A stretch of 64,000 bases of DNA from positions 30,328 to 94,327 of the forward strand of contig JAQGNH010000120.1 in NCBI GenBank assembly GCA_028291945.1. The letters are read 5' to 3'. Origin of the DNA: Betaproteobacteria bacterium. GTDB taxonomy: Bacteria > Pseudomonadota > Gammaproteobacteria > Burkholderiales > SG8-41. Positions 44,591-60,765 of the stretch are shown piece after piece; positions within the stretch are counted from its first letter, which is position 1; every line of letters begins with the position of its first letter. The position numbers were made by a program, and so were the translations under genes. A model generated the notes under the pieces. That model made no database searches. It saw only the letters and a list, made by a program, of their open reading frames with translations, and was not told where the DNA came from.

Positions 44591-44715
44591 TGAATGCGAA
44601 TGATGAATGAGCAATCAGCAGCTTCCTTTGATTTGAGGTCCGTATCCGGCTTGAGACAGGCCGTACGGGCTCTTAGTGCCTGGCAGCCGTATTCCGTATT
44701 CATCATTCATCATTC
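44585..44715. repeat. AT-rich AATGATGAATG boxes: two direct copies, and about 90 bp away two inverted copies, upstream of pcaH
   Basis: aatgatgaatg at 44586-44596 and 44599-44609. Reverse complement cattcatcatt at 44704-44714, plus a 10/11 copy at 44697-44707. A related gaatgaatgatg lies at 46008-46019 after pcaG. Confidence 0.6.
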
Positions 44716-44724
44716 GGAATTGCT

Positions 44725-45429
44725 ATGACTGATCCCACTCCCTACCGACGGCCGTACAGACAGACGCAGCCGGAGTATTTCTATCCACCCTACAGGTCGA
44801 CGGCCAAGCGTGCGCCCACCCGGCCGCTGGTCATGCCGCCGCAAACCATTTCAGAAGTGACGGGCCCCCTCTTCGGGCACGAAGACGTGAAGCCGGAAGA
44901 GGCCGACCTCACTGCGCAGCACGCCGGGGAGCCGCTCGGCGAGCGCATGATCGTGACGGGCCGCGTGCTCGAAGAGACCGGTCGGCCCGTGTGCAATGCG
45001 CTCGTCGAGATCTGGCAGGCGAACGCTGCCGGCCGTTACCGGCATGCAACAGATAACCACGACGCGCCTCTGGACCCGAACTTCACGGGTTGCGGGCGCG
45101 TGCTGACCGACGGCGACGGACGCTATCGCTTCAAGACCATCAAACCGGGCGCGTACCCGTGGCGTAATCATTACAACGCGTGGCGGCCTGCGCACGTTCA
45201 TCTTTCGATCTTCGGGCGCGGCTTCATGCAGCGACTCGTCACGCAGTTTTACTTTCCAGGCGACCCGCTGCTGCCGTACGATCCGATGTTCATGAGCGTT
45301 CCCGACGAACGCGCCCGTCATAACCTAATCGCCGAGTTCGACTGGGAACACACGATTCCGGAGCATGCGATCGCATACCGCTTCGACATCGTGCTGCGCG
45401 GACGCGACGCTACACCGATGGGTGCATGA
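44725..45429 (+). CDS. pcaH: protocatechuate 3,4-dioxygenase beta subunit
   Basis: VEIWQANAAGRYRH, DPNFTGCGR, FKTIKPGAYPWRNHYNAWRPAHVHLSIFG. Confidence 0.93.
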   Translation: MTDPTPYRRPYRQTQPEYFYPPYRSTAKRAPTRPLVMPPQTISEVTGPLFGHEDVKPEEADLTAQHAGEPLGERMIVTGRVLEETGRPVCNALVEIWQANAAGRYRHATDNHDAPLDPNFTGCGRVLTDGDGRYRFKTIKPGAYPWRNHYNAWRPAHVHLSIFGRGFMQRLVTQFYFPGDPLLPYDPMFMSVPDERARHNLIAEFDWEHTIPEHAIAYRFDIVLRGRDATPMGA

Positions 45430-45430
45430 C

Positions 45431-45994
45431 ATGAGTCTGCTTCTGACCGCCGCGCAAACGGTCGGCCCGTTTGTCGCCATCAGCTTCGAGCACACCCAGG
45501 TGCAGGACGTCGCGCCGCCGGGCGTGAGCGGGGAACGCATCGTCATCCAGGGCCGCGTGCTGGATGGTGATGGCAAGCCGGTCGAGGATGCAGTGCTGGA
45601 GACGTGGCAAGCTAATGGCCATGGCAAATACTCCCATCCGGAAGACACACGCGAGAAACTGCTCGACCCTGCGTTCAAAGGATTCGGACGCGTTTTGAGC
45701 AACCGGCACGGCGTGTTTCGATTCAGCACGATCAAGCCGGGGCGCGTGCCCGGTCCCAACGACGTGCTGCAAGCGCCGCATCTCGTCGTGCTCGTTTTCA
45801 TGCGCGGGCTTTTGAAACATCTCGTGACCCGTGTGTATTTTCCGGACGAAGCCGCAAATCGTGAGGATCCGGTGCTGGGACTCGTTCCAGCTGAGCGGCG
45901 GTCCACCCTCGTCGCAGCTAGGGTCGGAGACGGCCTGCTCGAATGGAACGTCGTGCTCCAGGGCCAGAACGAAACGGTGTTCTTCGATTACTAG
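45431..45994 (+). CDS. pcaG: protocatechuate 3,4-dioxygenase alpha subunit
   Basis: ATG 45431 is 1 nt after the pcaH stop. TAAQTVGPFVAISF, LETWQANGHGKYSHPED, FSTIKPGRVPG. Confidence 0.9.
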   Translation: MSLLLTAAQTVGPFVAISFEHTQVQDVAPPGVSGERIVIQGRVLDGDGKPVEDAVLETWQANGHGKYSHPEDTREKLLDPAFKGFGRVLSNRHGVFRFSTIKPGRVPGPNDVLQAPHLVVLVFMRGLLKHLVTRVYFPDEAANREDPVLGLVPAERRSTLVAARVGDGLLEWNVVLQGQNETVFFDY

Positions 45995-46136: not shown

Positions 46137-46817
46137 CTATGAGCCTTGCTGCGCGTCGAAGCCCTGCGCGAACAGGCCGCGGTCCAGCAGCAGCTGCCAT
46201 AGGGCGAGCCAGGTCGGCCAGTCGTGACCACCCGGTATCGCGGCTACGCGATACCGCGGCAAGCATTCGCGGAGCAGCACGCTCGCTGAAATGAATCGGT
46301 CCTGTTCTCCATAGCCCAGATGAATGGGCGGCAGCGACGCCTGGGGACCGGATTCCCTCAGCCAATCCAGCACGTGCCGCTCGTCGTCGGTTGGAGCGAG
46401 TTCACCCGGCTGCCACATCTTCAATCCACCCGCGCGAACGACCTCGTGGAGCGTTCCGGGAGCACCGAGATACGGTGCCAGCACGACCACACCTTGAACA
46501 TGTTCCCGGTGCGCCCGCGCACACATCAACGCGCCTAATCCGCCCAGCGAAATGCCCATCAGCCAGATGTCGCGATACCCCTGCTTCCGGGCGGGAACGA
46601 CAATGTCTTCAGTGAGCCGCTCCACGACGTTGCGGTCGAGGTAATAGCCGTCATGAGCATCCGCCACCACAACCGAAACCGGCAGTCCGCGCTCGCGCAG
46701 TGCGACGATGAAACCAGCGCGGATGATATCTTCCGGCTTATGCATTGCGCCGGGCAGCATGATTAATAGCACATCGCGTGTGCTTTGCTGAGGCACCCTA
46801 TCGTGGATCGTTCTCAT
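46137..46817 (-). CDS. alpha/beta hydrolase (esterase/thioesterase candidate); last gene of the lipid cluster
   Basis: Nucleophile elbow GISLGG. 226 aa. 69-nt gap after the MMPL gene on the same strand. Confidence 0.7.
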   Translation of the reverse strand: MRTIHDRVPQQSTRDVLLIMLPGAMHKPEDIIRAGFIVALRERGLPVSVVVADAHDGYYLDRNVVERLTEDIVVPARKQGYRDIWLMGISLGGLGALMCARAHREHVQGVVVLAPYLGAPGTLHEVVRAGGLKMWQPGELAPTDDERHVLDWLRESGPQASLPPIHLGYGEQDRFISASVLLRECLPRYRVAAIPGGHDWPTWLALWQLLLDRGLFAQGFDAQQGS

Positions 46818-46886
46818 CGGCAGTGTGCGATCGTGCGGCGTTCCGATTGCGTTGTGCGTGTCGACTGTCAGAAGGTCCGCTCCTGC

Positions 46887-49235
46887 TTATTGTTTGGCCG
46901 TGGCACCGGACGCGCTGTGCGCGATGAAAATCGCCGCGAACACGAGGCTTAGTACGGCACCGAGTCCGACTGTGCTGCCGATCGCATGCAGTATCGGCAC
47001 CTGCGAAAACGAAAGCAGGCCGAAGCCGATCACCGTAGCGACATTGGCGAAGAGTACCGAGACGATGGTGCGTTCCCGGTCGTGACTATCGGGCGTCTGG
47101 CGGTCAAAGAAAAGCGAGTAGTTGGAACCGACAGCGACCACGAGCAACAATCCGACCACGTGAAAAATCGACAGCCTGCTGCCGCTCAGCAAGATCGCGC
47201 TCGCGGTAAACGCCACAGCGGCAGCGAGAGGCAAGGTAACGTCGACCACTCGGCGCGTCGAGCGCAAGGCGAGGAATAACAGCGCGACGATCGCGGCGGC
47301 GCCGAGCAGTGCGTTGCGCACCACTTCCCGGAGATACGCTTCGTAGAGCTCGTCCGCCGCGCGTTTGACATCGAGCACTACCACCGTCGTATCACGCGCC
47401 GCTCCTATTTCTCGGGTCAGCGCCGGCACATCTCGAACCCCTCGCAACGGCAGCATCGCGACCCAGCCGGTGCCTCGAGTCATAAGGAGCGAAGCGAGCT
47501 TCAGCGCGAGGCGCGTTCCATGCAGGCTTTCGCGCGTGACGGGAGGCATTGCTCTGGCTCTCTCGACGTCTTGCAGAAAAGGCTCGAACAAATCCGCCCG
47601 AAATGGAAGCCCGCGTGCGGCTTGCCGCAGGTTCTCGCGCAGATTGTCCTGCTGGGGTATTGCCGCCTGACGCGAACGTTGCATCGAGACACTCGGTAGG
47701 TAAAACGTCGGCGCATCGAAATCTTCCAGCACATCGCGGCCTTGCAGATCGTTCAGACGCGCAGCAATTTTCTCGCTTGCTTCGAGCACCGCCTGCTCAT
47801 TTGCGCCGGTCACCACGACGATGTGCCGCACGTCGGGAGCTCCCATGTCTCGCCGCAACTGCTCGTCGAGTTTCTGCTCCGAGGCCGAAATCGGGCTCAG
47901 ACTTGCGAGATCTTCACTCCAGATCGCACCACTACGTGCAGCCGCCGCCGCGACGCTCAGAGCAATGAGCAAAAGCGCCGGATAGCGCATCGCCGGGGCT
48001 CGGCGCACCAGTGCCATCACGCGCGGCGCGAGCGCCGTTACTGCGTGCGGGCTGAACCCCGGCGGCAGCAATGCGGGCAGGACAAAACGCGTCACCGTGA
48101 CGGCCACGGTGAGCCCTACGATCGAAAACAAACCGAGCTGGGCGAGCCCCGTGAAGCCTGAGAACAGCATCGCGCTAAATCCGCAGATCGACGTCAACAC
48201 GCCGAGGCGCAACGTCGGCCATATGCGATTCAAGGTCTCATGCGGCGGTAGACCCGGGGCGAGTTGGGTGAAGAGATAGATCGCGTAATCGACGCCTTCG
48301 CCTATGAGCGTAGCGCCAAAACCCAGGGTAATACCATGGACCGAGCCGAAGGCAACGCTGACTGCGGCAACCCCGGCCAGTGCACCGGTTGCAACTGGAA
48401 GCAGGCCCAGTATCAACACGCGCACGGATCGGTATAGCGCAAGCAGCAGCGCGGCAATGAGCACGGTTGCGATCAGCGAAATCCGGGTTGCGTCGCCTTT
48501 GATGCGCTCTCGAGAGCTGACAGAGAACACGCCCGGGCCCGTGAGCACGACTTTGGCGCTAGCGGCTTCGCGGGAATCGCTTACTGCTGTCGCAAACGCT
48601 GCGCGTATGGCGCGCGTGGCGTTCTCTTGCGCGTCGATGTCGTAGCCGGGCGCTTTGGTCTGTGCCAGCAATAGCGCACGCGTCCCGTCGCGCGAGAACC
48701 AGACGCCGTCGCGCATTTCCGGCCTGGCCTGTCCCGACAGACGCTCGACGAGCCCCATCAGTTCGCCCGTGGGGTCGTTCGGCAGTATCCGCTGTATGAA
48801 TATTCCCGCTGGCGACCCGAGCAAACGCAGGCTTTCCTCGAGTCTCTCGCGCAGCCCCATAGCGGAAAAATGATCTGCCGTAACGGTGGGGCTCAACAGG
48901 TATCGGTAGCGCCACAGAAACTCGCGATCCTTTTCGTCGCCCGTGTCCTCGCCGTTATCAGCCGAAACGAATTGTCCATCGCCGCGTAGGTCTGCCGCGA
49001 CGCGACGGCTCACGCCCGCGAGCGCAGGCGTAGGAGCGCCTTCCACGCCTATCAATATGAGGCGTGACACAACGCCATCGCGCAGTTGATCGACCAGAAT
49101 CTGCTGGGCGGGTGAGGGCGAGCGCGGAAGAAAAGCAGAAAGATCGGTCGTGAAGTGGGTGCGGCTCACAATGGCCGCGCATGCGACAACGAACAGCAAC
49201 CATGCGGCGACCGGCCAGCGCGAAGCTCGCGTCAC
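46887..49235 (-). CDS. MMPL/RND-superfamily exporter
   Basis: 782 aa, two 6-TM bundles each preceded by a large soluble loop. N-terminus FTTDLSAFLP is typical of APE-cluster MMPL proteins. Confidence 0.85.
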   Translation of the reverse strand: MTRASRWPVAAWLLFVVACAAIVSRTHFTTDLSAFLPRSPSPAQQILVDQLRDGVVSRLILIGVEGAPTPALAGVSRRVAADLRGDGQFVSADNGEDTGDEKDREFLWRYRYLLSPTVTADHFSAMGLRERLEESLRLLGSPAGIFIQRILPNDPTGELMGLVERLSGQARPEMRDGVWFSRDGTRALLLAQTKAPGYDIDAQENATRAIRAAFATAVSDSREAASAKVVLTGPGVFSVSSRERIKGDATRISLIATVLIAALLLALYRSVRVLILGLLPVATGALAGVAAVSVAFGSVHGITLGFGATLIGEGVDYAIYLFTQLAPGLPPHETLNRIWPTLRLGVLTSICGFSAMLFSGFTGLAQLGLFSIVGLTVAVTVTRFVLPALLPPGFSPHAVTALAPRVMALVRRAPAMRYPALLLIALSVAAAAARSGAIWSEDLASLSPISASEQKLDEQLRRDMGAPDVRHIVVVTGANEQAVLEASEKIAARLNDLQGRDVLEDFDAPTFYLPSVSMQRSRQAAIPQQDNLRENLRQAARGLPFRADLFEPFLQDVERARAMPPVTRESLHGTRLALKLASLLMTRGTGWVAMLPLRGVRDVPALTREIGAARDTTVVVLDVKRAADELYEAYLREVVRNALLGAAAIVALLFLALRSTRRVVDVTLPLAAAVAFTASAILLSGSRLSIFHVVGLLLVVAVGSNYSLFFDRQTPDSHDRERTIVSVLFANVATVIGFGLLSFSQVPILHAIGSTVGLGAVLSLVFAAIFIAHSASGATAKQ

Positions 49236-49831
49236 CGGCCGTCCTCGATGATGGTCATCTCCGAGCGGTCACCTCCTGTTTCCATAACCTCGATCACGCG
49301 CAACGACTGATCGTGTCCAGTGATGCGTATCTGACTGACGAGTGCCTGCATTTTGCTGTCGCGAGGCTTGAGCAGCAGGCGCCACTCGCGCTGATCGCCT
49401 TCGAAACGCACCTCATAAAAGCGGTTGAGACTCTTCAGGTCCCCCGCGAGCGTCGAGCGTATGCTTTCTACGAAAGCCCACACCACGGGAAATTCCTGCA
49501 GCGCGAGGGTTCGCCGCTGCTTACGGACTTTGTCTTCGAACGTGAGCCGATCCTGCTCGAGCACGAGGCTGTCCGGTTTCGGCGTCAGCGTGTGCTTCTC
49601 CAGGTGCCCCGGCGCGGAATAGCTCAACGTGCCTCTCGACTCGAGGGGGTCGTTCAGGATACGCAGAAACTTGCGCTCGACGAACCTCGCTTTCGAGCTT
49701 TTCACCTGAGCGAGACTTTGCATGAGGTCTTCGAGACCCCACTTCGGAATCGGCGCACTCGCGGCTGAGCGTGCGCTCAAGGGCGCGAGACACAAAAAAG
49801 CGATCAGCGCGAGGCGTGTCAGTCGAATCAT
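49232..49831 (-). CDS. LolA-like outer-membrane lipoprotein carrier family protein
   Basis: Signal peptide MIRLTRLALIAFLCLAPLSA from ATG 49831. FVERKFLRILNDPLESRGTLSY block. 4-nt overlap with the MMPL start. Confidence 0.65.
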   Translation of the reverse strand: MIRLTRLALIAFLCLAPLSARSAASAPIPKWGLEDLMQSLAQVKSSKARFVERKFLRILNDPLESRGTLSYSAPGHLEKHTLTPKPDSLVLEQDRLTFEDKVRKQRRTLALQEFPVVWAFVESIRSTLAGDLKSLNRFYEVRFEGDQREWRLLLKPRDSKMQALVSQIRITGHDQSLRVIEVMETGGDRSEMTIIEDGR

Positions 49832-49838
49832 GATCCGC

Positions 49839-50741
49839 TCAGGTCCAGTAGTCATAGAAGTTGAACCAGTTATAGGGCGCCATCCGACAGTAGTGCTCGA
49901 GGCGCTGCACGTAGGTCCTGATCGCGTCATCGATGACCGCATCACGCTGCGTGCGTTCGACGTACTGCATGTCGACGAGTGGCTCGAAGTAAATGTCGTA
50001 GCGACGGCCCCCGCGATAAAGGCCGAACATCAGAACGACGGGTCGTTTCAGCATCGCGGCAATCCGAAACGGTCCAACCGGCATCCGCGCGGGCTTTCCG
50101 AAAAACGTGCACGCCACGGTTCCTTCGCCCGCAATGGTGCGGTCCGCGAGCATGCCCACGAGCTCACCCCTCGACAGCGCATTCTGTACCTTCAGCATGG
50201 AGTCGACTGTTCCAAGCGCGATCACGTCCAGCACAGCATCGGGATTGATAGCCGCCAGCACCGAGTTAATTTTCCGGGCGTTCTCTTCGTACATCACCAT
50301 GCTGACACGCGCGCCGCCAGCCTGTCGTCCAAGCGCGCGGATCACCTCGAAACTGCCGAGATGGGCGCCGATGAGCAGACAACCTTCACCCCCCGCGCTC
50401 GCGTTGCGTATCACGTTTTCCCCGTGCACGTGGATATCGAAGCGGTGGTATTCGCCGTTCAGAAAGAAAACGCGGTCGAGGATGGTCGATGCAAAGGTAT
50501 GGTAATGGCGGTACACATGCCGCAGGCGCGGTTTGCCCCCGAGCACCGCACGCAGGTATTGCCGCGACGCGGCGCGTGCGCTGACGGAGAACAGACTGAA
50601 GTAAAGACAGATCGGGTACAGCAGGACCCGTGCTGCGCGGCGCCCGAGCGTGAGCGCGATCCACACGATGACGCGAATGGCGAGCGTTTGCCCGCGCTCT
50701 GGCTGTGCGATCCACCGGGGGGGCGAAGCATCGCTCGTCAA
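49839..50741 (-). CDS. LpxL/HtrB-type lysophospholipid/lipid A acyltransferase family protein
   Basis: N-terminal TM segment. IGAHLGSFEVIRAL (the HX4D/E-like region of the LPLAT family). 300 aa. Confidence 0.75.
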   Translation of the reverse strand: MTSDASPPRWIAQPERGQTLAIRVIVWIALTLGRRAARVLLYPICLYFSLFSVSARAASRQYLRAVLGGKPRLRHVYRHYHTFASTILDRVFFLNGEYHRFDIHVHGENVIRNASAGGEGCLLIGAHLGSFEVIRALGRQAGGARVSMVMYEENARKINSVLAAINPDAVLDVIALGTVDSMLKVQNALSRGELVGMLADRTIAGEGTVACTFFGKPARMPVGPFRIAAMLKRPVVLMFGLYRGGRRYDIYFEPLVDMQYVERTQRDAVIDDAIRTYVQRLEHYCRMAPYNWFNFYDYWT

Positions 50742-50808
50742 TGCTGCTCTGCCTTCATCGAACGCGCTGAAGCGACACTCTGCACGCCGCAGCCCACAAC
50801 CTCAGGCT

Positions 50809-52149
50809 TCACGCTGCGCGGGTGGAAAGCTCGTTCACCAGCGTTGCGAGCGCCTCACGCGGAAGTTTACTGGTCGCGTTGCGCGGCAGCGCTTCCACGA
50901 AGCAGAGCGGGCGGGGCAGGAACGCAGGATCGATGCGCCGACGCAAGGCCTTCATCAACGTGGACCTCGTCATACCCGGCGCGACGACCAGCGCCATCAG
51001 GCGTGTGACGGCTTCGCCTTCGTCGGCTTGGGGCACTACGAACACGCCGTCGCGTACCCCTTCGATCGAGTTCAGGTGGTAGTTCAGATGAGCGAGCGAC
51101 GTGCGTTTGCCCGCGATGTTTACGAGATCGGCGTGACGGCCATGCAGCAGGAAGCGCTGTCGGCCGCGCAGTTCGATCACGTCACCGAGCAGCACTTCCC
51201 CGCTCACGTGACCGCCTTTGATCCAAGTGCCGCGCTCATCCTTGCGCAAGGTGATCCCGGGTAACGCAGACCACTCGGAAGTCTTAACGGTGCGGCGGGT
51301 GGCCACCTGGCCGGCCTCAGTGCAGCCATACACCTCGTATAGCGCGGCGGCAAAGCGTTTCTCTGCTGCGGCTGCAAGCTGGGGCGAAAGCGGCGCTGTC
51401 GCGCAAACCAGAAAATCCGCGGCGGGCAAAACGGCGCTCTCGCATATCAGTGTCCGCAGGTGCACCGGCGTTGTAACAAGACCGCGAGGGCGCGGCAAGG
51501 CTTCGAGCTCCGATGCGATATCGGCCGGGTAAAAAGGTCGTCCCGAGTGTAAAGCGAGGCCGCCCTGCATCGGCAGCACCACCGTCGATTCGAGACCATA
51601 CATGTGCTGCGGCGGTACGGTGCCCACGATGGACGTACCCGGCTTAGTGCTGAGTCCGAGTCGCTCGAATTCCGCTGTAACGCTGCCGACAAGGGCACCC
51701 CACGTCTTTGGATGGGGCGTGGGCTCACCCGTGGAACCGGAAGTCAGAACGATAGCCGCGACTTGCGCAGCCGGTATGGCGGGTATGCTATCGGGTGGCT
51801 GCGGTGTATCGGTCAGCTTGGGGAACGAAAAAATGCTGAAAGGCCGGTGTTCGACAGTGCTGTCGACGATGCAGTAAGCGTCCGGATAGCTGCGGCTGAG
51901 GCGCCTGAAAAGGTCAGGTGTGTGGTTCGGCGGCAGCAGGCTCACCTGCCTGCGCACAAGCGCCGCCGCGAGTGCGACGCTGAACTGGTAGCGGTCGGCG
52001 CATAGGTTCACGACGTAAGCCGCGCTCGGCAGCTGTGACGCCAGATACAGCACGTGCTGCAGAAACCGTGCTGTGCCGATCGGCTTGCCGCTGCAATATG
52101 CAAATACGCCGTCTTCTCTGAAGTTGCGTATGAGCGGCAGGTCAGCCAT
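50809..52149 (-). CDS. AMP-dependent synthetase/ligase (acyl- or aryl-ACP ligase candidate)
   Basis: AMP-binding motif LTSGSTGEPTPHPK, YGCTEAG, C-terminal LPRNATSKLPR. Confidence 0.85.
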   Translation of the reverse strand: MADLPLIRNFREDGVFAYCSGKPIGTARFLQHVLYLASQLPSAAYVVNLCADRYQFSVALAAALVRRQVSLLPPNHTPDLFRRLSRSYPDAYCIVDSTVEHRPFSIFSFPKLTDTPQPPDSIPAIPAAQVAAIVLTSGSTGEPTPHPKTWGALVGSVTAEFERLGLSTKPGTSIVGTVPPQHMYGLESTVVLPMQGGLALHSGRPFYPADIASELEALPRPRGLVTTPVHLRTLICESAVLPAADFLVCATAPLSPQLAAAAEKRFAAALYEVYGCTEAGQVATRRTVKTSEWSALPGITLRKDERGTWIKGGHVSGEVLLGDVIELRGRQRFLLHGRHADLVNIAGKRTSLAHLNYHLNSIEGVRDGVFVVPQADEGEAVTRLMALVVAPGMTRSTLMKALRRRIDPAFLPRPLCFVEALPRNATSKLPREALATLVNELSTRAA

Positions 52150-52837
52150 TCAGGTCCCTGACGATGCCTTGCTTCATTACGGGTGTGGCTGTCGTGGCGG
52201 TCGGACTGTGTCCATCGGCGAAGACCTGTATGCCTTTGAGCATCGAGACGTGCTGGCGGTCGCGGAACCGGACCACACGGTAGACATATTCGCAGACGAA
52301 CATCAGCGCGACCAGCGGCAAGCTCAGCATGTTGACAAAAACGGACCAGGAATCGAGTGAAGCGAACACGAACAGCGCGGCGGACACGACAATCTGCCCG
52401 GCAAAAAAAATACACCACACCGCTGTGACGCGGCGCGTGTACGCTTGGATGTAAGGCGGGAGCTCCCCATGAATCCTGCGAGCAAAGCCGCTGATCAGAG
52501 GTTCGCGGCCTCGCAGCAGGGTGCGGCCGAAAATCCAGAGCATCAAGAGATTGATCGCCGCATGAGTGAACGCATTCATTACCGGCAAACCCACACCGTC
52601 ACGCCATTCGATCGCATAGGTGGCCACAGCGCCAGTGAAAATCGCCAAAGTCCATAAAAACTTTTTGCGTGCGCGCTTCGCTACCCAGTAGCCGAGTGCG
52701 AGCAGGGGGATCAATGCCAGCGCAAAACGCGCCGCGCTGCTTGTTCCGTCGACGATAACCGAGTGGACCAGCACTTGATATGCGATGCATGCCGGCAGGA
52801 TGAGCGCTTTCCACAGCCAGCCGGATCCGTGCTGCAT
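52142..52837 (-). CDS. polytopic membrane protein of unknown function
   Basis: 231 aa, about 6 hydrophobic segments. Its start abuts the ACP stop, and it overlaps the ligase start by 8 nt. Confidence 0.55.
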   Translation of the reverse strand: MQHGSGWLWKALILPACIAYQVLVHSVIVDGTSSAARFALALIPLLALGYWVAKRARKKFLWTLAIFTGAVATYAIEWRDGVGLPVMNAFTHAAINLLMLWIFGRTLLRGREPLISGFARRIHGELPPYIQAYTRRVTAVWCIFFAGQIVVSAALFVFASLDSWSVFVNMLSLPLVALMFVCEYVYRVVRFRDRQHVSMLKGIQVFADGHSPTATTATPVMKQGIVRDLNG

Positions 52838-53137
52838 CTACTGAGTCCGATTTTGTTGGAGGTGATGGCTGAGGCTGCGCAGCGAGCTGAATATTTTCAG
52901 GTTGTTCTCGTCATCCGAGCGAATTTTTACACCATAGCTTTTAGAAATAACAAGCGCGACTTCGAGGATATCGATCGAATCGAGGCCCAGTCCTTCCCGA
53001 TAAAGCGGCGCGTTCGGATCGATTTCGGCTGCGACTACGTCGAGATTCAGAGCTGTTACGATCAACTGTGCCAAGGCGAGCTCTTCAGGAGTGGGCGTCG
53101 CGGCCGGCGGGAGCCGTTGTGCCGAAGTTTTAGTCAT
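52838..53137 (-). CDS. acyl carrier protein
   Basis: LGLDSIDILEV phosphopantetheine-attachment motif. 99 aa. Confidence 0.85.
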   Translation of the reverse strand: MTKTSAQRLPPAATPTPEELALAQLIVTALNLDVVAAEIDPNAPLYREGLGLDSIDILEVALVISKSYGVKIRSDDENNLKIFSSLRSLSHHLQQNRTQ

Positions 53138-53382
53138 GGATTTCTCCCGATGATGCGTTTCGAATATTGTTTGGACTGGATCTGAACCTGCACTCCACGA
53201 TCAGGAACCGACGCACGCCTGCTTTTATTATAACGCCGGTGCGTCCCGAAATCGCCGTCGGCCGACCTGAGGACGTCTGCGGTGGCATTTGTGCATTGCA
53301 GGCCAGCGGCAAGACGATGACAAACGACATCGATTGCATGTACGATTGCCTCTCGCATAACGTCCTTAAAGGGGGGGTAAAC

Positions 53383-53781
53383 ATGTTCGCTCGCTTCCAT
53401 CGTGGCATTGTAGTGGCCGTCGCAGCATTGATGCTCGGCGCATGCGCCGGCACTGGCGTACCAGTTCAAAACGTCATTGAATCGCCCGTCGTAAGCAACA
53501 AACCGAATCCGTCGATGGACGATGTCAGGCAGGCGATCGTACGTGCCGGTGCTGGGCTTGGTTGGCAGATGAGGGCTGAGCGGCCCGGCCACATAGTCGG
53601 TACCTTGGCCCTGCGCACTCACCTTGCTGTCGTTGATATCGACTATAACCCCAAGGCCTACAGCATCAAATATAAAGACAGCACAAATCTCGAATACAAC
53701 GGCAGCACCATTCACAGAAATTACAACGCCTGGATCGAGAGACTGGACAGGGCGGTAAAAACGCAATTGACCGTTCTTTAA
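53383..53781 (+). CDS. hypothetical lipoprotein
   Basis: ATG 53383 follows a G-rich RBS. Lipobox MLGAC. 132 aa. No family recognised. Confidence 0.5.
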   Translation: MFARFHRGIVVAVAALMLGACAGTGVPVQNVIESPVVSNKPNPSMDDVRQAIVRAGAGLGWQMRAERPGHIVGTLALRTHLAVVDIDYNPKAYSIKYKDSTNLEYNGSTIHRNYNAWIERLDRAVKTQLTVL

Positions 53782-53825
53782 TCTCGCATCGGGCCTTTGG
53801 GAATCGCTGCATCGACCAGATCACC

Positions 53826-54671
53826 ATGAGCCGCTCCCTGGCCGATGCATGCGACCCGCGCGTTGCACGCGCAGCTGAGGTAGATAAAAAACCAGCTTTC
53901 GCACTGGTAATTCCTGCGCTGAACGAAGCTGCGACTATTCGCGACGTGGTCAGCCGCGCACTGGTGCAAATCGACACGGTGATCGTCGTCGATGACGGCT
54001 CGCACGACGGCACGGGGCAGGCGCTGGATGGTTTAGCGGCGGTCGTCCTGCGGAATCAATATACGTGCGGCAAGGCGGCGAGTTTGCGGCGGGGCATCGC
54101 GTACGCGCTTGGTGCAGGCGTCGCGGCGGTGATGACGCTTGATGGCGACGGACAGCACGCGCCTGAAGATATCCCGCGGCTTATCGCCGCCTACCGGCGG
54201 AATCCGGGCATGATCGTCATAGGCGCTCGCCTTCACGACACTCGCAAAATCCCGCGCTCGAGGTATTTAGCGAACCGCTTCGCGAATTTCTGGATCGCGT
54301 GGGCCGCGGGATATGCGCTGAACGACAGCCAGTCGGGTTTTCGGCTTTATCCCGCACAGGTTCTCGAGAGCTTGCACGTGGTGCATAACCAATCGCGCGG
54401 GTTTGTTTTCGAAAGCGAGATCCTCATCGATGCTGCGCGATCCGGCGTAAGGAGCGTATCGGTTACGATCCCGGCGGTGTATCGTACGGATGCGCGGCCG
54501 AGCCATTTCCGGCCGGTTCTTGATATTCTGCTGATTACGCGCATGGTCGCGTGGAAGCTCCTGAGCCGAGGCTTGTATGTGTCCGGCCTGATCAGGAGCC
54601 TGCAGCGTTCCGATCGGGTTTCCTACGATTACGAAAGCTCCGAGGTATCGAATAATGCCGAACGCGGTTAA
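53826..54671 (+). CDS. family 2 glycosyltransferase (DPM1/GtrB-like)
   Basis: LVIPALNEAATI, VIVVDDGSHDGT, TLDGDGQH (DxD region), SGFRLYP. Confidence 0.85.
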   Translation: MSRSLADACDPRVARAAEVDKKPAFALVIPALNEAATIRDVVSRALVQIDTVIVVDDGSHDGTGQALDGLAAVVLRNQYTCGKAASLRRGIAYALGAGVAAVMTLDGDGQHAPEDIPRLIAAYRRNPGMIVIGARLHDTRKIPRSRYLANRFANFWIAWAAGYALNDSQSGFRLYPAQVLESLHVVHNQSRGFVFESEILIDAARSGVRSVSVTIPAVYRTDARPSHFRPVLDILLITRMVAWKLLSRGLYVSGLIRSLQRSDRVSYDYESSEVSNNAERG

Positions 54672-55986
54672 ACCCGACGCCGCCTGTCGAGCGTCATGCG
54701 ACGTGCTGGTCATCGGCGGGGGGCCGGCAGGCTCAACCATGGCGGCTCTCCTTGCTGAACGCGGCCGTAACGTCGTGCTCGTCGAGAAGGCGAAACATCC
54801 GCGGTTCCATATTGGTGAGTCGCTGCTGCCTTTGAATCTGCCGTTGTTCGAACGCCTTGGGGTGGCCGAAGAGATCAGACAGATCGGCATGCTCAAATAC
54901 GGAGTCGAGTTCATCTCGCCGTGGCATAGCACACCGATGACTTTCGACTTTGCCGATGCGTGGGACAAAGCTTTTCCGTATTCATACCAGGTGCGGCGTT
55001 CGGAGTTCGACGAGATCCTGTTTCGAAACGCGGCGCGCAAAGGTACGCAGGCGCTCGAAGGCTGTCGGGTGACCGGAGTCGAATTCAACGACAAGGGTGC
55101 GCGCGTCAGCGGCCGTCACGAAGATGGCCGAGAAGTGAGCTGGGACGCGCGATTTGTGGTCGACGCATCGGGCCGCGACACGCTTCTTGCAAACCAGTTC
55201 GCCATCAAGCGCCGCAACAAGCAGCACAACAGTGCTGCGATTTTCGGACATTTTTCAGGCGCGTCCCGCCTTCCCGGCAAAGCCGAGGGCAACATCACGG
55301 TTTTCTGGTTCGACCATGGCTGGCTCTGGTTCATTCCGCTATCGGACGGCACCACCAGCATCGGCGCGGTTTGCTGGCCTTATTACATGAAGTCGCGCAA
55401 AACGAATCCTTCGCAATTCCTGCTGGATACGATTGCGCTGTGTCCAGCGCTGCAAGAGCGGCTGCGCAATGCACAGCTGATCGCACCCGCTACGGCCACC
55501 GGAAACTATTCGTACACCGCGAAGCGTACGGCGGGCCGTAATTACCTGATGCTGGGCGACGCCTTTGCGTTTATCGATCCAGTTTTTTCCACCGGAGTCT
55601 TCCTGGCCATGCATAGCGCCTTCGTCGGCGCTGACACGATTGAAACCTGTCTCGACAAACCTACCCGCGCGAGCTCTGCGCTCGCCGCATTCGATCGAAC
55701 GATGCGCCGCGGTCCGTCAGTCTTCTCGTGGTTTATCTACCGCGTTACTACGCCGACATTGCGCGATCTCTTCATGGAGCCCAATAACCGTTATCGGTTG
55801 CAGGAAGCATTGCTCTCGATACTCGCAGGCGACATCTTTCGCGGCACGCCTCTGAATTCGCGGGTGCTCGCGTTCAAGGCCGTGTACTACCTGAAGAACT
55901 TCTTCAATGCGAAGCGGACGTTTGCGGCATGGAAGAAGCGCAGACGCTTCATTCAGGACGCGGTCGTAACAGAAGCGACGGGTTGA
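54655..55986 (+). CDS. FAD-dependent oxidoreductase, flavin-dependent halogenase-like
   Basis: GxGxxG (VIGGGPAGS, nt 54715-54732) and WLWFIP, matching the WxWxIP halogenase motif (nt 55321-55338). HIGESLLP block. Confidence 0.75.
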   Translation: MPNAVKPDAACRASCDVLVIGGGPAGSTMAALLAERGRNVVLVEKAKHPRFHIGESLLPLNLPLFERLGVAEEIRQIGMLKYGVEFISPWHSTPMTFDFADAWDKAFPYSYQVRRSEFDEILFRNAARKGTQALEGCRVTGVEFNDKGARVSGRHEDGREVSWDARFVVDASGRDTLLANQFAIKRRNKQHNSAAIFGHFSGASRLPGKAEGNITVFWFDHGWLWFIPLSDGTTSIGAVCWPYYMKSRKTNPSQFLLDTIALCPALQERLRNAQLIAPATATGNYSYTAKRTAGRNYLMLGDAFAFIDPVFSTGVFLAMHSAFVGADTIETCLDKPTRASSALAAFDRTMRRGPSVFSWFIYRVTTPTLRDLFMEPNNRYRLQEALLSILAGDIFRGTPLNSRVLAFKAVYYLKNFFNAKRTFAAWKKRRRFIQDAVVTEATG

Positions 55987-56053
55987 CCGTTGCAAGCAAG
56001 AGCTACCGCTGGAGCGCACACACCGGCACGCGGACACACACGCCCGGGAGCCG

Positions 56054-56749
56054 ATGACAATGTTCAAAAACAGGGAAGACTTTATCCGCTACGCGTCCGG
56101 CTACAAGGGACAGGTCTTGAAGGACGACCTCATCGTCGATCTATGCCGCGACAAGACTGTCCTTGACCTCGGCTGCATCGACCACAACGCCCAAAGAGCA
56201 CTTGCTCTCGGCGAACGCTGGCTTCATCGCCGCATCAAGGACGTCGCAAGCGACTTGCTTGGTGTCGACGTGCTGCCTGAAGACGCACAGAAACTAAATC
56301 AGCTTGGATATCGAATTGTCGTTGAAGACGTGACGCGAATGAAGCTGGGGCGTCACTTCGACGTCATAGTTGCAGGCGATCTCATCGAGCACCTTTCGAA
56401 CGTTGGGATGTTTCTCGATTGCGTCGCGAATCATATGCATCCCGAATCCATCTGTGTCATCACTACTCCGAACCCTTTCAATATAGAGCAGACCATGCTC
56501 GCCGTATTCCATAACCAGATCGCAGTGAACCCGCAGCATGTCTCCTGGCTCGATCCGCGCGTGATGTATGAGCTCATTTCGCGTTCGGGACTGTTCATCG
56601 CAGATTTTCACTGGGTCGATACGCGATTCAATTTCCCGATCAAGAAAAAAGGATGGAAGACGTTGATCAATAAACTTTCCGCCTATCTCATGACAAAGCG
56701 GCCCATTCTCCGGCGGGACTACGCAGTAGTCCTTGCGAAGAACGCGTAG
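56054..56749 (+). CDS. class I SAM-dependent methyltransferase
   Basis: VLDLGCIDH (motif I) and DVIVAGDLIEHL (motif II/III region). Two 60-nt lines in the gene count 29/60 and 30/60 G+C. Confidence 0.8.
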   Translation: MTMFKNREDFIRYASGYKGQVLKDDLIVDLCRDKTVLDLGCIDHNAQRALALGERWLHRRIKDVASDLLGVDVLPEDAQKLNQLGYRIVVEDVTRMKLGRHFDVIVAGDLIEHLSNVGMFLDCVANHMHPESICVITTPNPFNIEQTMLAVFHNQIAVNPQHVSWLDPRVMYELISRSGLFIADFHWVDTRFNFPIKKKGWKTLINKLSAYLMTKRPILRRDYAVVLAKNA

Positions 56750-56862
56750 CGGATGCATCGCCTTTCCGCTGGCTTACAACGGGAGAAGATTGAAGACTAC
56801 TTTGCCGCACTGTTGCGAGCGAAAAGAGCAGGCTGGATTTTCCTGTATTTATTGTTGGGCCG

Positions 56863-57582
56863 CTACAACATCGCTCCACTGATCCCGATGATCTGCGCGG
56901 AAATATAGCCCGCCTGGTCTGACGCAAGGAATCCCACCAGATCAGCAACCTCTGCGGGCGTACCGGCTCGTTTCATCGGCACCATGCGCGCGATGTCAGC
57001 TTTACTAAACAAGCTTGCGGTCGGCGTATCGGCAATGATTCCCGGTGCGATGGCGTTCACGGTAATACCGCGGCTCGCGACTTCGAGCGCGAGCGCACGC
57101 GTCGCGCCTTGCAACCCCGCCTTCGCTGCGGCGTAGTTCGTCTGGCCGCGATTGCCCGCGATCGCGCTGACAGACGACATGTTGATGATGCGGCCCCAGC
57201 GCGTGCCGATCATCGGCAGCAGCAGGGGCTGAGTAACGTTGAAAAACCCGTTGAGCGAGACGTCGATGACTCGCGCCCACTGCTCCGGCTTCATGCCCGG
57301 CATGACGGCATCGTCCACGATGCCTGCATTGTTGACGAGGATCTGAACTGCACCGGCTTGAAGCATATCGTGCAGCGCGGCCTCGGTCTCTACGCGGTTG
57401 GTAACATCGAAAGCTATTGCGCTTGCAGCGCCTCCTAACGCCTGGATTTCCGCCGACAGCGCTTCAGCCTGCTGAATGTGCTCGTGCGCATGCACATAGA
57501 CGTAACAGCCGTCCGCCGCGAGCCGTTTACAGATTGCTGCGCCAATCGCGCCGCTGCCGCCTGTGACGAGAGCGCGTTTCAC
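56863..57582 (-). CDS. fabG: 3-oxoacyl-ACP reductase (SDR)
   Basis: ALVTGGSGAIGAAI, NNAG, YAAAKAG (YxxxK). Confidence 0.9.
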   Translation of the reverse strand: MKRALVTGGSGAIGAAICKRLAADGCYVYVHAHEHIQQAEALSAEIQALGGAASAIAFDVTNRVETEAALHDMLQAGAVQILVNNAGIVDDAVMPGMKPEQWARVIDVSLNGFFNVTQPLLLPMIGTRWGRIINMSSVSAIAGNRGQTNYAAAKAGLQGATRALALEVASRGITVNAIAPGIIADTPTASLFSKADIARMVPMKRAGTPAEVADLVGFLASDQAGYISAQIIGISGAML

Positions 57583-58331
57583 GGTGCGTGCTTCTTAGAA
57601 CCATGAAACGTCGGCGCAAAACGCGTGCTCAGATGGTTTGACGCTGGCAGCTCGAAAACGATCACACTGCGTTCGTCCCGTGCCAATGCCGCCAATAAGG
57701 GCAGGCTGCGGGCCGCAGGTATGCCAGTCCGCAACGCTTCCAGGGCAGGATCGATCATGCATGTCGGCTGCAAAGATCCGGCCGTATAAGTCACTTCGAT
57801 TGTTGCGAGCGTGCGTTTGGTGGGCTGCGGCGCAAGCACCAGGGCCACACCAAAGGCGCCGCACACCGGCCGTTTCGAATGCAGTGGCTCGGGATAAGGA
57901 TGATCGTACGCGATCAGCGCGACGGGAGTATTGTCCACAGCCGTTTGCGTCGCCGCATCGAGCAGTCCGGCTCCAAAGCTCGCGTCGTAGCAGCACAAGC
58001 TCGTGGACGGCTGACGCGACTGCGTTGCAATGCTCCAGTATCCGGCCGCCGCGTTGTGAACGGAATTGTGAAATCGCGTCGGCGACACCTCGCGCCCCGG
58101 GAGCGCGAGCGATTCGAAGATGTGATGAACCGTTTCCCCATCGCCGCTGGAAGAGGTGAATACCGTCGCGACGGAGGCCGGGTCGCGTCCTGCGTGCGTG
58201 CAGGCCTCTTGGGCGACCGCGAGCGCGAGCTTGACGGGAATACCGGTGCGACGTCGTTCCGCTGCCGGCAACAACGCACTCGCGCTCAACGCGATTGGCG
58301 AAGAAACGTAGGGCTCGGTACCGGCAAGCAC
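57579..58331 (-). CDS. truncated beta-ketoacyl-synthase-like protein (N-terminal KS domain only; chain-length-factor-like partner)
   Basis: 250 aa with a thiolase-fold N-terminal half (FHNSVHNAAAGYWSIA). No HGTxT or GHxxGAAG C-terminal motifs. 4-nt overlap with fabG. Confidence 0.65.
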   Translation of the reverse strand: MLAGTEPYVSSPIALSASALLPAAERRRTGIPVKLALAVAQEACTHAGRDPASVATVFTSSSGDGETVHHIFESLALPGREVSPTRFHNSVHNAAAGYWSIATQSRQPSTSLCCYDASFGAGLLDAATQTAVDNTPVALIAYDHPYPEPLHSKRPVCGAFGVALVLAPQPTKRTLATIEVTYTAGSLQPTCMIDPALEALRTGIPAARSLPLLAALARDERSVIVFELPASNHLSTRFAPTFHGSKKHAP

Positions 58332-58399
58332 TGAACGGCTCTCGCGCCAGTCGCGGAGTCCTGGGCCCGCGAGGCCGATGCCCTCGAGATAAACGCGGA

Positions 58400-59590
58400 T
58401 CAGGCGGTCGACCCCAGAACGAGGCTGCAGTTGCTCCCGCCGAAACCGAACGAGTTACTGAGAACGCGCTCGACGCGCCCGGCCCTGGTTTTCGTCAGAT
58501 AGCGGCTTTTCAACACGGGATCCACCTCCTCAGTGTTCACGCTCGCCGGCATGAGATCGTTCTGCATCGCGAGTATGCCGATTATGGCCTCGGTGACCCC
58601 GGCTGCGCCCAGCAGATGTCCCGTTGCTCCTTTGGTCGAGCTGCAGGGCGTGCGTTCGCCAAACAGCTCGAAGCTCGCCCTGTCTTCGGCTGCGTCATTC
58701 GTCCTGGTCGCAGTGCCGTGCAGATTAATGTAGTCGATGTCCGAGGCCTCGAGGCTCGCCGAATCGAGAGCGCGCTGCATTGCGAGCTTCGCGCCGAGGC
58801 CTTCCGGGTGCGGCGTTGACATGTGATACGCGTCGGAGCTTTCCCCCACGCCGAGGAGCATCGCGCGCGACGTCTCCGGAGCCTCGATTTTTTGCAGCAA
58901 AGCGAAGCCTGCTCCTTCTCCGATGGAGATGCCGTCACGCGCGATGTCGTAAGGCCGACAGGGCCTCGTCGAAACGAGCTCAAGCGCGTTGAAACCATAA
59001 AGTGTCGTGAGGCAGAGACTGTCGACGCCCCCGACGACCGCGGCATCGCAGACACCTGCGGCAATCAGGCGTGCGGCATGCGCGAACACTTTCGCGCTCG
59101 AGGAGCACGCGGACGATACGGCGAACGCAGGCCCCTGCAACTCGAGATAGCGCTGCACGAAATCGGCTACGGAAAAGCAATTCTGCGTCGGCGCGTACAG
59201 GAAATCGGAAGGCAGCGCGCCAGTCTTCGGGTCTCGGCGCCGATACGCGAGCTCCGCTTGCAAAATCCCTGAAGTGCTCGTTCCTATGAAAACACCGATA
59301 CGTTCAGCGCCTATTCTGGCGCGCAGCGCGCGAACGGCATCGGCAAATCCGTCGAGCTCGAGGCCCATCTGCGCGAGCCGGTTATTGCGGCAGTCGTAGA
59401 GCGCAAGATCGGAGCGCACCGGCGCGTTATCGAGACCCGGCACTTGTCCGATAAACGTATTCAGTTGGACCGATTCAAACGCGCACGGCCCGAGACCTGA
59501 GCGTTCCGCGTGCAGCGCTTCCGCAATCGCGGTGGAGCCGGCACCGAGGCTGTTTACGATGGAGAATTGCGAGACGGATAGGGGCTGCAC
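58400..59590 (-). CDS. beta-ketoacyl-ACP synthase (KAS I/II type)
   Basis: Cys-His-His contexts: VSSACSSSAKV, NLHGTATRTND, SSTKGATGHLLGAAG. 396 aa. Confidence 0.92.
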   Translation of the reverse strand: MQPLSVSQFSIVNSLGAGSTAIAEALHAERSGLGPCAFESVQLNTFIGQVPGLDNAPVRSDLALYDCRNNRLAQMGLELDGFADAVRALRARIGAERIGVFIGTSTSGILQAELAYRRRDPKTGALPSDFLYAPTQNCFSVADFVQRYLELQGPAFAVSSACSSSAKVFAHAARLIAAGVCDAAVVGGVDSLCLTTLYGFNALELVSTRPCRPYDIARDGISIGEGAGFALLQKIEAPETSRAMLLGVGESSDAYHMSTPHPEGLGAKLAMQRALDSASLEASDIDYINLHGTATRTNDAAEDRASFELFGERTPCSSTKGATGHLLGAAGVTEAIIGILAMQNDLMPASVNTEEVDPVLKSRYLTKTRAGRVERVLSNSFGFGGSNCSLVLGSTA

Positions 59591-59847: not shown

Positions 59848-60765
59848 ATGCTCGAAATCGACATGACGGCGCCCGGCATCGACCGGCTCATCTCTCACGA
59901 CGCGCCGCTCGATCTCATCGCAAACGATCTGCTTTTCGGTGAGGGTCCGCTGTGGAGCACGCGGGAGCGCGCATTCTATTTCGTGGATATCGTGGGCGAC
60001 ACGATCTGGCGCTGGAGGCCGGGGCGCGGGCGCGAAGTATTCATGCGCCCGTCCACGAAAGCGAATGGTCTAACTTTCGACGTTCAAGGCAAGCTGCTCG
60101 TCGCGGGCTGGGCTTCACGCTCGATCTGGCGGGTCGAGCCCGACGGCTCCGTTTCGACGCTCGCATCGCATTTTGACGGAAGGAAGATGAACAGCCCGAA
60201 CGACATCGTCGTGAAGTCGGACGAGTCGATTTACTGGACCGATTCCCCGGGTGCGCTCTTCAATGTCGGAATGGCCGGCGAGGATGTCCAGCAATATTTG
60301 CCGTTCCAGGGTGTCTTTCGACTCTCCGCCGACGGACACAAGCTTTCCCTCGTGATCGAAGACTGCGTTTACCCAAACGGGCTCGCATTTTCGCCCGATG
60401 AGCGCGTGCTCTACGTGAACGACAGCCGTCAATACCTCATCCGTGCATTCGACGTGCAGCCCGACGGCTCCCTCAGGAACGCCCGCATGTTCCACAAACT
60501 GGAGGGCACCGAGGAAGGGATCGCCGATGGCATGAAAGTCGATCGCGAAGGCAACGTCTATTGTTCGGGACCCGGCGGTATCCACGTCATGGATCCCAAC
60601 GGCAAGCGTCTCGGCCGCGTGCGCATACCAGGGCATGTCACCAATATGGGCTGGGGCGACGATGACTGGCGCTCGCTCTACATCACGACGCGCTCTTCGG
60701 TGTATCGCACTCGCGTGAATGTGCCCGGAGTGCCCGTGAGACAGCCCGCCGGTGAGTCACGGTGA
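59848..60765 (+). CDS. SMP-30/gluconolactonase/LRE family protein
   Basis: AAGGAGAG RBS. GEGPLWSTRERAFYFVDI, NSPNDIVV, PNGLAFSPDE, DGMKVDREGNVY. Confidence 0.85.
   Translation: MLEIDMTAPGIDRLISHDAPLDLIANDLLFGEGPLWSTRERAFYFVDIVGDTIWRWRPGRGREVFMRPSTKANGLTFDVQGKLLVAGWASRSIWRVEPDGSVSTLASHFDGRKMNSPNDIVVKSDESIYWTDSPGALFNVGMAGEDVQQYLPFQGVFRLSADGHKLSLVIEDCVYPNGLAFSPDERVLYVNDSRQYLIRAFDVQPDGSLRNARMFHKLEGTEEGIADGMKVDREGNVYCSGPGGIHVMDPNGKRLGRVRIPGHVTNMGWGDDDWRSLYITTRSSVYRTRVNVPGVPVRQPAGESR

Follow-up and report, generated by a model that had tools for sequence, protein, structure and literature searches.

Gene content of the locus

The DNA analyzed here, referred to as the window, is a 64,000-nucleotide stretch of contig JAQGNH010000120.1 from a bacterium of the Burkholderiales. 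Positions 46137-59590 of this window contain a cluster of 14 genes that an earlier reading of the sequence, the original prediction, had assigned to the aryl-polyene (APE)/xanthomonadin family of pigment clusters and had described as lacking a dehydratase (DH). Gene functions given throughout are assigned from homology and protein family. All 14 genes were confirmed at the predicted coordinates by Pfam and NCBIfam profile searches and by the listing of open reading frames (ORFs). On two near-identical metagenome contigs, L001 and L002 (L-numbers label the related loci and contigs compared in this analysis), an independent gene call yielded the same 13 genes, as far as these contigs reach. The genes are as follows.

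58400..59590, minus strand: elongating ketosynthase (KS), ApeO/arcK type (PF00109 and PF02801; PRK09185, 538 bits, cut-off 407)
57579..58331, minus strand: half-size chain-length factor (CLF), ApeC/arcJ/Lysobacter ORF16 type (PF13723 Ketoacyl-synt_2 only, E=2e-27)
56863..57582, minus strand: FabG-type ketoreductase (KR), ApeQ/FabG3/arcH type (adh_short, E=1e-49; NCBIfam FabG, 342 bits)
56054..56749, plus strand: S-adenosylmethionine (SAM) methyltransferase (Methyltransf_23, E=2e-11; weak UbiG match)
54655..55986, plus strand: flavin-dependent halogenase, arcA type (Trp_halogenase, E=3e-35; CmlS-like, E=5e-57, under the NCBIfam cut-off)
53826..54671, plus strand: GT2 polyprenyl-phosphate-type glycosyltransferase, arcE type (Glycos_transf_2, PF00535, E=6.5e-22; PpgS/AglJ-like)
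53383..53781, plus strand: 132-amino-acid (aa) lipoprotein (without Pfam or NCBIfam match; LGAC lipobox read from the sequence)
52838..53137, minus strand: acyl carrier protein (ACP), arcV/XanC type (PP-binding; PRK09184, 122 bits, cut-off 70)
52142..52837, minus strand: 231-aa polytopic membrane protein with six transmembrane segments, arcU position (without Pfam match)
50809..52149, minus strand: aryl-acid:ACP AMP-ligase, ApeH/XanA2/arcT type (AMP-binding and AMP-binding_C)
49839..50741, minus strand: LpxL/HtrB-type lipid acyltransferase, arcR type (Lip_A_acyltrans, PF03279, E=6e-15)
49232..49831, minus strand: LolA-like periplasmic carrier, arcQ type (LolA_3, PF19574, E=3e-18; flexirubin LolA2-like, E=5e-16)
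46887..49235, minus strand: MMPL/RND-type exporter, arcP type (MMPL, PF03176, E=7e-18; HAE3/HpnN-like)
46137..46817, minus strand: alpha/beta-hydrolase (esterase), last gene of its operon, arcO position (PF00756, E=1.6e-8)

The minus-strand genes form two operons, one consisting of KS, CLF and KR and the other running from the ACP through to the esterase, with the four plus-strand genes (lipoprotein, GT2, halogenase and methyltransferase) located between them. Gaps inside the operons were at most 69 nt, in line with the predicted limit of under 70 nt. The 14-gene inventory, the intact Cys-His-His residues of the KS and the boundaries, a convergent pcaG and a divergent SMP-30 gene, also agreed with the original prediction (the flanks proved to be pcaH/pcaG and two SMP-30/SGL genes). 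Its statement that every ORF of 60 aa or more was accounted for held only loosely, as about 100 overlapping alternative-frame ORFs are present in this GC-rich DNA, none of them real-looking. A scan of the locus for promoters and terminators gave counts no higher than chance.

Active-site residues were intact in the KS (Cys162, His291 and His325, read from the sequence in an alignment), in the KR (Ser137, Tyr150 and Lys154) and in the ACP (Ser54, within LGLDSID). The best PDB matches were 7f28_B and 6qsp_A for the KS, 7f28_A and 6qsp_B for the CLF and 4iiu and 7caw for the KR. Database molecule names for these entries are generic; we take 7f28 to be the ApeO-ApeC pair of Acinetobacter baumannii and 7caw its ApeQ, while 6qsp and 4iiu are presumably the Xenorhabdus ApeO-ApeC pair and the ApeQ of Escherichia coli CFT073, respectively. 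The CLF has more than 7900 homologues, under the NCBI name 'beta-ketoacyl synthase chain length factor', and homologue names point to uncultured Burkholderiales/Betaproteobacteria as the source. The best NCBIfam match of the AMP-ligase was 4-coumarate ligase (E=6e-31, under the cut-off), and its identity to the orthologues of ~125 related clusters was 52-79%; the aryl substrate is a prediction. GGGPAGS and WLWFIP motifs were read in the translation of the halogenase, which shares 70-82% identity with its counterparts in L009 and L007. O-methylation of the aryl head group is the probable role of the methyltransferase. The lipoprotein was called as 132 aa on L001 and L002 too, and the LolA ORF could be extended to 49945, the independent call being 199 aa.

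Absence of dehydratase and chorismatase genes

In canonical clusters, CLF and KR flank an ApeP-like dehydratase gene, and AMP-ligase and acyltransferase flank an ApeI-like one. In the window, the CLF stop codon overlaps the KR start codon (GTGA) and nothing fits between these genes, while the AMP-ligase and acyltransferase genes are separated by a 67-nt spacer at the site of ApeI. ApeI and ApeP sequences from two relatives, including L003, gave no tblastn match anywhere in the 64 kb. Hidden Markov models (HMMs) of 92 ApeP, 117 ApeI and 23 FkbO/XanB2 homologues were searched against six-frame segments of the window with a best E value of 0.44; when models of 77 deacetylases and 27 PlsC-type acyltransferases were added and 1241 six-frame segments searched, the best E values were at least 0.22. 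The hotdog and chorismatase profile scans that had been proposed with the original prediction, run on the 64-kb window, likewise returned no ApeP, ApeI or XanB2: the dehydratase pair PF22817 (ApeP-like) and PF22818 (ApeI-like) was detected neither in the locus nor in the window, and the FkbO HMM found no XanB2/FkbO chorismatase in the window. Within the locus, 44 alternative-frame ORFs reach 86 aa or more, and a Pfam scan of these identified no hotdog family.

The possibility, raised with the original prediction, that a dehydratase is hidden in one of the listed proteins was not borne out. Each protein is within ~15 residues of the length of its canonical orthologue and, hence, there is no room for a hidden hotdog domain of ~100 aa. 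A fusion of ApeI to the AMP-ligase, as found in A. baumannii (PMC8041823), was rejected; the ligase of the window is unfused, with 446 aa as compared to 443 aa in L003, where ApeI is separate. The membrane protein and the lipoprotein, both without a Pfam match, were rejected as carriers of a dehydratase, both being present in clusters that keep ApeI and ApeP, and the lipoprotein was rejected as a replacement specific to loci without dehydratases, having homologues in the ApeI-keeping clusters L101, L105 and L115-L122. No DNA similarity indicative of an apeP remnant or 'scar' was detected in the CLF tail or at the CLF-KR junction. A protein search for an orphan or relocated ApeP, performed with the ApeP of L009 and including the context of two matches, led to canonical CLF-ApeP-KR contexts in unrelated samples. 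As to whether the L009 contig, from the same metagenome as L002, stems from the same genome, GC contents were 63.1% versus 60.1%, and the tetranucleotide correlation of ~0.94 was no better than those of other Burkholderiales loci.

The sole hotdog-fold protein in the 64 kb is a 161-aa 4HBT thioesterase (23127-23612, plus strand), located 22.5 kb from the cluster and directly after an Amidohydro_2 gene (22257-23123). This gene is probably unrelated to the cluster.

Comparison with known systems and related loci

Among the closest known systems are the arc (arcuflavin) cluster of Azoarcus sp. BH72 and related xanthomonadin-like clusters of betaproteobacteria; the arc cluster is split over two loci and has one ACP, the dehydratases arcI and arcS and, as arcB, a XanB2 chorismatase (PMC3949708). 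The window resembles this system in the order KS-CLF-(DH)-KR, in a halogenase and GT2 gene on the opposite strand and in the succession of ACP, membrane protein, AMP-ligase, (DH), LpxL-type acyltransferase, LolA, exporter and hypothetical protein or esterase, with one ACP and no thioesterase. The window differs from the arc cluster in the absence of arcI (ApeP-like), arcS (ApeI-like), arcB, the polysaccharide deacetylase arcN and the PlsC-type acyltransferase arcD, and in the presence of genes for a lipoprotein and, within the locus, a methyltransferase; no dialkylresorcinol genes are visible in the window. With the Xanthomonas pig and Lysobacter enzymogenes clusters (PMC6859482, PMC3691225), the window shares a type II KS with a half-size CLF, a FabG3-type KR, an ACP, a 3-hydroxybenzoic acid:ACP ligase, an acyltransferase, LolA, an exporter and GT2; a halogenase is shared with Xanthomonas. 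Those clusters encode FabA/FabZ-like dehydratases (two in Lysobacter; XCC4004 in X. campestris) and, in Xanthomonas, XanB2, whereas the window has none of these. Their known products are brominated, O-methylated aryl polyenes (PMC6859482, PMC3691225), with which the halogenase and methyltransferase of the window are consistent. The APE clusters of E. coli CFT073, Xenorhabdus and Acinetobacter (PMC8253772, PMC8041823, PMC8358021) are similar in the ApeO/ApeC pair, ApeQ, ApeH, an ApeE-type ACP, the LolA-like ApeL, the ApeM exporter and the acyl- and glycosyltransferases.

Features defining the xanthomonadin/arcuflavin subtype were found in the window, namely an adjacent ApeO-type KS and half-size CLF, an ACP and AMP-ligase, a FabG-type KR by the KS and CLF, and an LpxL-type acyltransferase, GT2, LolA-like carrier and MMPL/RND exporter (PF03279, PF00535, PF19574 and PF03176). 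The features of the E. coli/Vibrio type (two ACPs, the second KS ApeR, the 4HBT thioesterase ApeK and, in E. coli, the heterodimeric ApeI/ApeP dehydratase) were absent, the locus having a single ACP and a single KS and lacking a hotdog thioesterase. The predicted membership of the APE/xanthomonadin family was supported by protein families, matches to solved structures and gene order in the Azoarcus arc cluster and ~160 loci. The single ACP and the lack of a hotdog thioesterase and of an ammonia-lyase, which had been regarded as anomalous, are no anomaly; two ACPs and these two enzymes are features of the E. coli/Vibrio subtype, and canonical relatives have one ACP and no thioesterase. A cispentacin-type AmcF/AmcG system was rejected, the NCBIfam scores being far under the cut-offs (AmcG, 16 versus 80 bits; AmcF, 178 versus 325 bits; AmcB, 32 versus 80 bits).

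Two sets of 80 loci each were assembled, one from GTDB species representatives scanned with the CLF and the other from JGI metagenomes scanned with the AMP-ligase, and 21 reference proteins were mapped onto all ~160 loci. ApeP followed CLF in 71 of 73 evaluable loci of the genome set and ApeI followed the ligase in 47 of 48, indicating that the missing dehydratases are a real anomaly, as originally proposed. The corresponding values for evaluable loci of the metagenome set were 15 of 20 and 60 of 69. Exceptions among the loci are rearranged lineages such as L148, with ApeI after MMPL, and L012 and L062, without ApeP and KR after the CLF. Gene content in this cluster family is fluid, and core genes are often unlinked.

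The canonical arrangement is illustrated by L003 (Sulfurirhabdus), with membrane protein, AMP-ligase, ApeI-like, LpxL-type acyltransferase, LolA, MMPL, esterase, deacetylase, KS, CLF, ApeP-like and KR genes. The membrane protein of canonical clusters is kept between ACP and AMP-ligase (217-219 aa there), and their esterase gene comes after MMPL as in the window. The nearest canonical relative, L009, has KS, CLF, ApeP-like and KR genes, followed by FkbO/XanB2, then halogenase and GT2 on the opposite strand, and a second part consisting of ACP, membrane protein, AMP-ligase, ApeI-like, LpxL-type acyltransferase, LolA and MMPL; ApeP, ApeI and XanB2/FkbO are all retained. The window is collinear with L009, with proteins 66-77% identical, except in four places: there is no ApeP at the CLF/KR junction and no ApeI at the ligase/acyltransferase junction, the methyltransferase occupies the FkbO/XanB2 position, and a lipoprotein gene lies between GT2 and ACP. 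As to the starter-unit enzyme that had been reported missing, the absence of XanB2/FkbO is a real difference from L009, while the absence of an ammonia-lyase is normal for the subtype. The XanB2/FkbO gene adjoins KR in L009 and many relatives; it is, however, a variable feature, as many canonical loci also lack it within 10 kb.

Loss of both dehydratase genes with retention of the KR was restricted, among the surveyed loci, to the window's own group. The CLF runs directly into the KR in the window, L001/L002, L010/L011 (CLF 86% identical) and L007/L008 (70%). The ligase-acyltransferase junction is visible only in the window, L001/L002 and L092 (ligase 79% identical), with ApeI absent in each. 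No GTDB representative was closer than 66%. No description of a DH-less aryl-polyene clade was found in the literature searched, which is absence of evidence only.

Other reduced or rearranged loci were observed in these sets. In L062 and L012 (positions 1-6600), ApeI is present although neither ApeP nor KR follows the CLF, and L014 (positions 250-12400) has kept ApeP and lost ApeI, with a lipoprotein gene present. L104 (positions 9600-17500) carries ACP, AMP-ligase, LpxL-type acyltransferase, esterase, KS and CLF, with FkbO and halogenase on the opposite strand, but KR, ApeP, ApeI, membrane protein, LolA and MMPL are missing from its 23-kb contig; this is an independent and more drastic reduction.

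Evolution and selection in the DH-less clade

A neighbor-joining (NJ) tree was constructed from concatenated KS, CLF and KR sequences of 80 taxa, using distances derived from p-distances and 100 bootstraps. The DH-less loci (window, L001/L002, L010/L011 and L007/L008) formed one clade in 100 of 100 bootstraps, with the canonical L009 as sister and L014 next. The clade spans down to ~70% protein identity, and its being a single clade indicates that ApeP was lost once, before a divergence of ~0.29 substitutions per site.

Selection was examined using the ratio of nonsynonymous to synonymous substitution (dN/dS). Values for the window versus L010 were 0.17 for the KS, 0.16 for the CLF and 0.10 for the KR, with an unsaturated dS of 0.3-0.45, and the ligase gave 0.12 versus L092. 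The canonical pair L009/L014 exhibited matching values for the same genes (0.10-0.21 overall; 0.10-0.19 over KS, CLF and KR); for the CLF in particular, dN/dS was 0.16-0.17 in the DH-less clade versus 0.19-0.20 in canonical pairs. Over all the genes, ratios were 0.06-0.26 between lineages (L010, L092 and L007), dS being saturated for deeper pairs, and up to 0.34 versus the near-identical L002, for which dS is too small to inform. The remaining genes of the DH-less clade are under purifying selection after the loss. The question raised with the original prediction, whether a DH-less clade exists, can thus be answered in the affirmative: the clade is monophyletic and conserved, and is subject to purifying selection. 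The GTGA overlap of CLF stop and KR start is common to three lineages, indicative of a tidy operon rather than a decaying one.

Clade-specific changes were counted at KS, CLF and KR columns with at least 90% conservation. Three were detected in the DH-less clade versus 5-16 in clades of similar depth, and none of the three was in the CLF. The ACP, ligase, acyltransferase, membrane protein and halogenase had 0-4 such changes, all conservative. On these alignments, the core enzymes appear to show no sign of a functional shift. Two of the three changes are in the KR and coincide with dehydratase loss. The first, H89V, affects the His directly after the NNAGI motif, present in 70 of 76 sequences and replaced by Val in the DH-less clade; the only other non-His cases are L019 and L073, which resemble non-orthologous short-chain dehydrogenases/reductases. 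The second, M187P, alters the lid motif from SPM to DTP or QTP.

Two further observations relate to recent change within the clade. The methyltransferase gene has a GC content of ~0.54 versus 0.61 and is confined to the window, L001 and L002, with no counterpart in L007, suggesting a recent insertion or replacement. Between L002 and the window, the lipoprotein, membrane protein and GT2 (window positions 52142-54671) are 89-94% identical, compared to 99-100% for the KS, CLF, KR, ligase and acyltransferase, which suggests recombination in the middle of the locus between two near-identical strains.

Flanking genes

On the esterase side (window positions 41031-45994), the cluster is flanked by pcaH/pcaG, encoding protocatechuate 3,4-dioxygenase and convergent with the esterase gene. 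The same convergent arrangement was observed in L184 (positions 2261-4202), where the esterase is just 66% identical. Genes for a LigXa-like Rieske oxygenase, a PdxA-family dehydrogenase and a TctC receptor lie upstream in the window, and this neighborhood of aromatic catabolism might be a source of the aryl starter now that XanB2 is gone. On the KS side (59848-63849), two tandem SMP-30/gluconolactonase (SGL) paralogues and an ADP-forming acyl-CoA synthetase (CoA_binding_2, Succ_CoA_lig and ATP-grasp_5 domains) are divergent from the KS. The same synthetase flanks the KS in L010 (positions 116-2843) and, hence, this side is syntenic within the clade; the L001 and L002 contigs both end a few hundred bases upstream of the KS.

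Among the remaining genes of the window are a MacAB-TolC-type efflux set (27212-32382), those of two two-component systems, rho, one for a DegP-type protease and one with a LigD primase-polymerase domain. ORFs of 343, 330, 196 and 198 aa without a Pfam match (E cut-offs of 1e-5/1e-6) are located at 38063-39094, 39932-40924 and 12023-13254, all on the minus strand.

Interpretation

Judged by its gene content and order, this locus is a xanthomonadin/arcuflavin-type aryl-polyene lipid cluster by descent, with all defining features except the dehydratase pair. A sublineage of the Burkholderiales seems to have deleted the genes for both subunits of the heterodimeric hotdog dehydratase (ApeP-like and ApeI-like), together with that for a XanB2-type chorismatase. 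Without a dehydratase, the encoded enzymes would be expected to stop at a 3-hydroxyacyl-ACP. The explanation that we favor, with moderate confidence, holds the cluster to be functional and, most likely, still a producer of a halogenated aryl-polyene lipid, with dehydration and the hydroxybenzoate starter supplied in trans.

The steps of this pathway are inferred by homology with the Xenorhabdus and Acinetobacter reconstitutions and with Xanthomonas and Azoarcus genetics (PMC8041823, PMC8358021, PMC3949708, PMC6859482). The AMP-ligase would load a hydroxybenzoate-type acid onto the ACP, the KS-CLF heterodimer would extend it with malonyl units and the FabG-type KR would reduce every beta-keto group, iteratively. 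The halogenase and O-methyltransferase would modify the aryl head group, the LpxL-type acyltransferase and GT2 would attach the chain to a lipid anchor and LolA and MMPL, with the lipoprotein, would take the product to the outer membrane. Dehydration would come from outside the locus, through ApeI/ApeP-type genes that have moved, through another aryl-polyene locus or, with lower likelihood, through the housekeeping FabZ/FabA, which are just one of several possible sources. The aryl acid may derive from UbiC, which has been proposed as the source for the E. coli APE (PMC8253772), or from aromatic catabolism.

Continued polyene synthesis is favored because no core enzyme, including the CLF that sets polyene length, shows relaxed or redirected selection and because the genes for head-group tailoring, anchoring and export are all kept. 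Retention of the halogenase, methyltransferase, anchoring genes and exporters likewise argues for an aryl-headed membrane lipid, and supply in trans is favored because the family tolerates core genes elsewhere, as in the split Azoarcus cluster and in L012, L062, L104 and L148. Several points weigh against this explanation. No dehydratase gene of the same genome was found in the 64-kb window searched, and simple loss is a more parsimonious account than the relocation of three genes, each from its own position. A study of deletion mutants in E. coli, a host with FabA and FabZ, reports loss of pigment in most core-gene mutants, and apeI and apeP are not among the mutants listed as retaining pigment or intermediates (PMC8253772); this suggests, as our reading rather than a statement of that study, that apeI and apeP are required and that FabA/FabZ do not rescue their loss. 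Finally, the pocket and lid changes of the KR are at near-invariant positions and coincide with dehydratase loss, so that H89V and M187P could reflect a changed substrate.

A changed substrate would accord with a different, non-polyene product, an explanation that is possible but which we hold to be considerably less probable. Synthesis would stop at a 3-hydroxy-3-arylpropanoyl-ACP or a short hydroxylated chain, the aryl head would be halogenated and O-methylated, and the chain would be moved to a glycolipid anchor and exported by LolA/MMPL. This would fit the disappearance of three genes from three separate positions with all others under purifying selection, and the fact that loss of the KR His after NNAGI and alteration of the lid motif are the only notable core changes at conserved sites; that the cluster dehydratases are not among the dispensable genes listed for E. 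coli (PMC8253772), where their requirement is inferred, is also in its favor. The CLF, which controls polyene chain length, is nevertheless unrelaxed, with no clade-specific changes, and conserved sites of the KS, ACP, ligase, acyltransferase and halogenase show hardly any change. Moreover, we know of no type II KS of the ApeO family that has been shown to extend 3-hydroxyacyl primers, which counts against such a product. A more specific proposal, which we regard as speculative and doubtful, is that the clade converted an aryl-polyene line to a dehydratase-free pathway for a new halogenated, O-methylated aryl beta-hydroxyacyl or polyol glycolipid of the outer membrane, with the aryl acid coming, perhaps, from the adjacent syntenic protocatechuate/aromatic-catabolism genes instead of a chorismatase.

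The cluster could also be a non-functional or silent remnant on the way to loss, given that three pathway genes are gone and that other reduced relatives exist (L104, and L012 and L062 without ApeP and KR after the CLF). We consider this improbable: none of the 14 ORFs is disrupted across lineages with as little as ~70% identity and between-lineage dN/dS of 0.06-0.26, active-site residues are intact, the overlap of start and stop codons resembles that of a translationally coupled operon and a methyltransferase gene was gained in the window's lineage. Equally improbable, in our view, is dehydration within the cluster without a hotdog enzyme, whether by the alpha/beta-hydrolase, the membrane protein or the KR itself or spontaneously at benzylic or allylic beta-hydroxy thioesters. 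The beta-hydroxy intermediates of aryl polyenes are benzylic or allylic, so that elimination would be thermodynamically favored, and two proteins of the cluster have no assigned family, both of which count for this route. However, the esterase, membrane protein and lipoprotein co-occur with ApeI and ApeP in canonical clusters and, hence, are not replacements, and no dehydratase-like family was found in any frame.

The characterized clusters in the literature cited here all encode an ApeI/ApeP-type dehydratase that makes the polyene, and a natural, selectively maintained lineage without either subunit presents a testable question. Rule-based tools would probably label such loci 'arylpolyene' despite the incomplete encoded chemistry. 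Complementation in trans is a mundane and likely answer, with the identity of the product being of specialist interest. If dehydration comes from elsewhere, the clade would bear on the modularity and partner specificity of type II enzymes; if the same scaffold makes a non-polyene lipid, this would represent a new product class.

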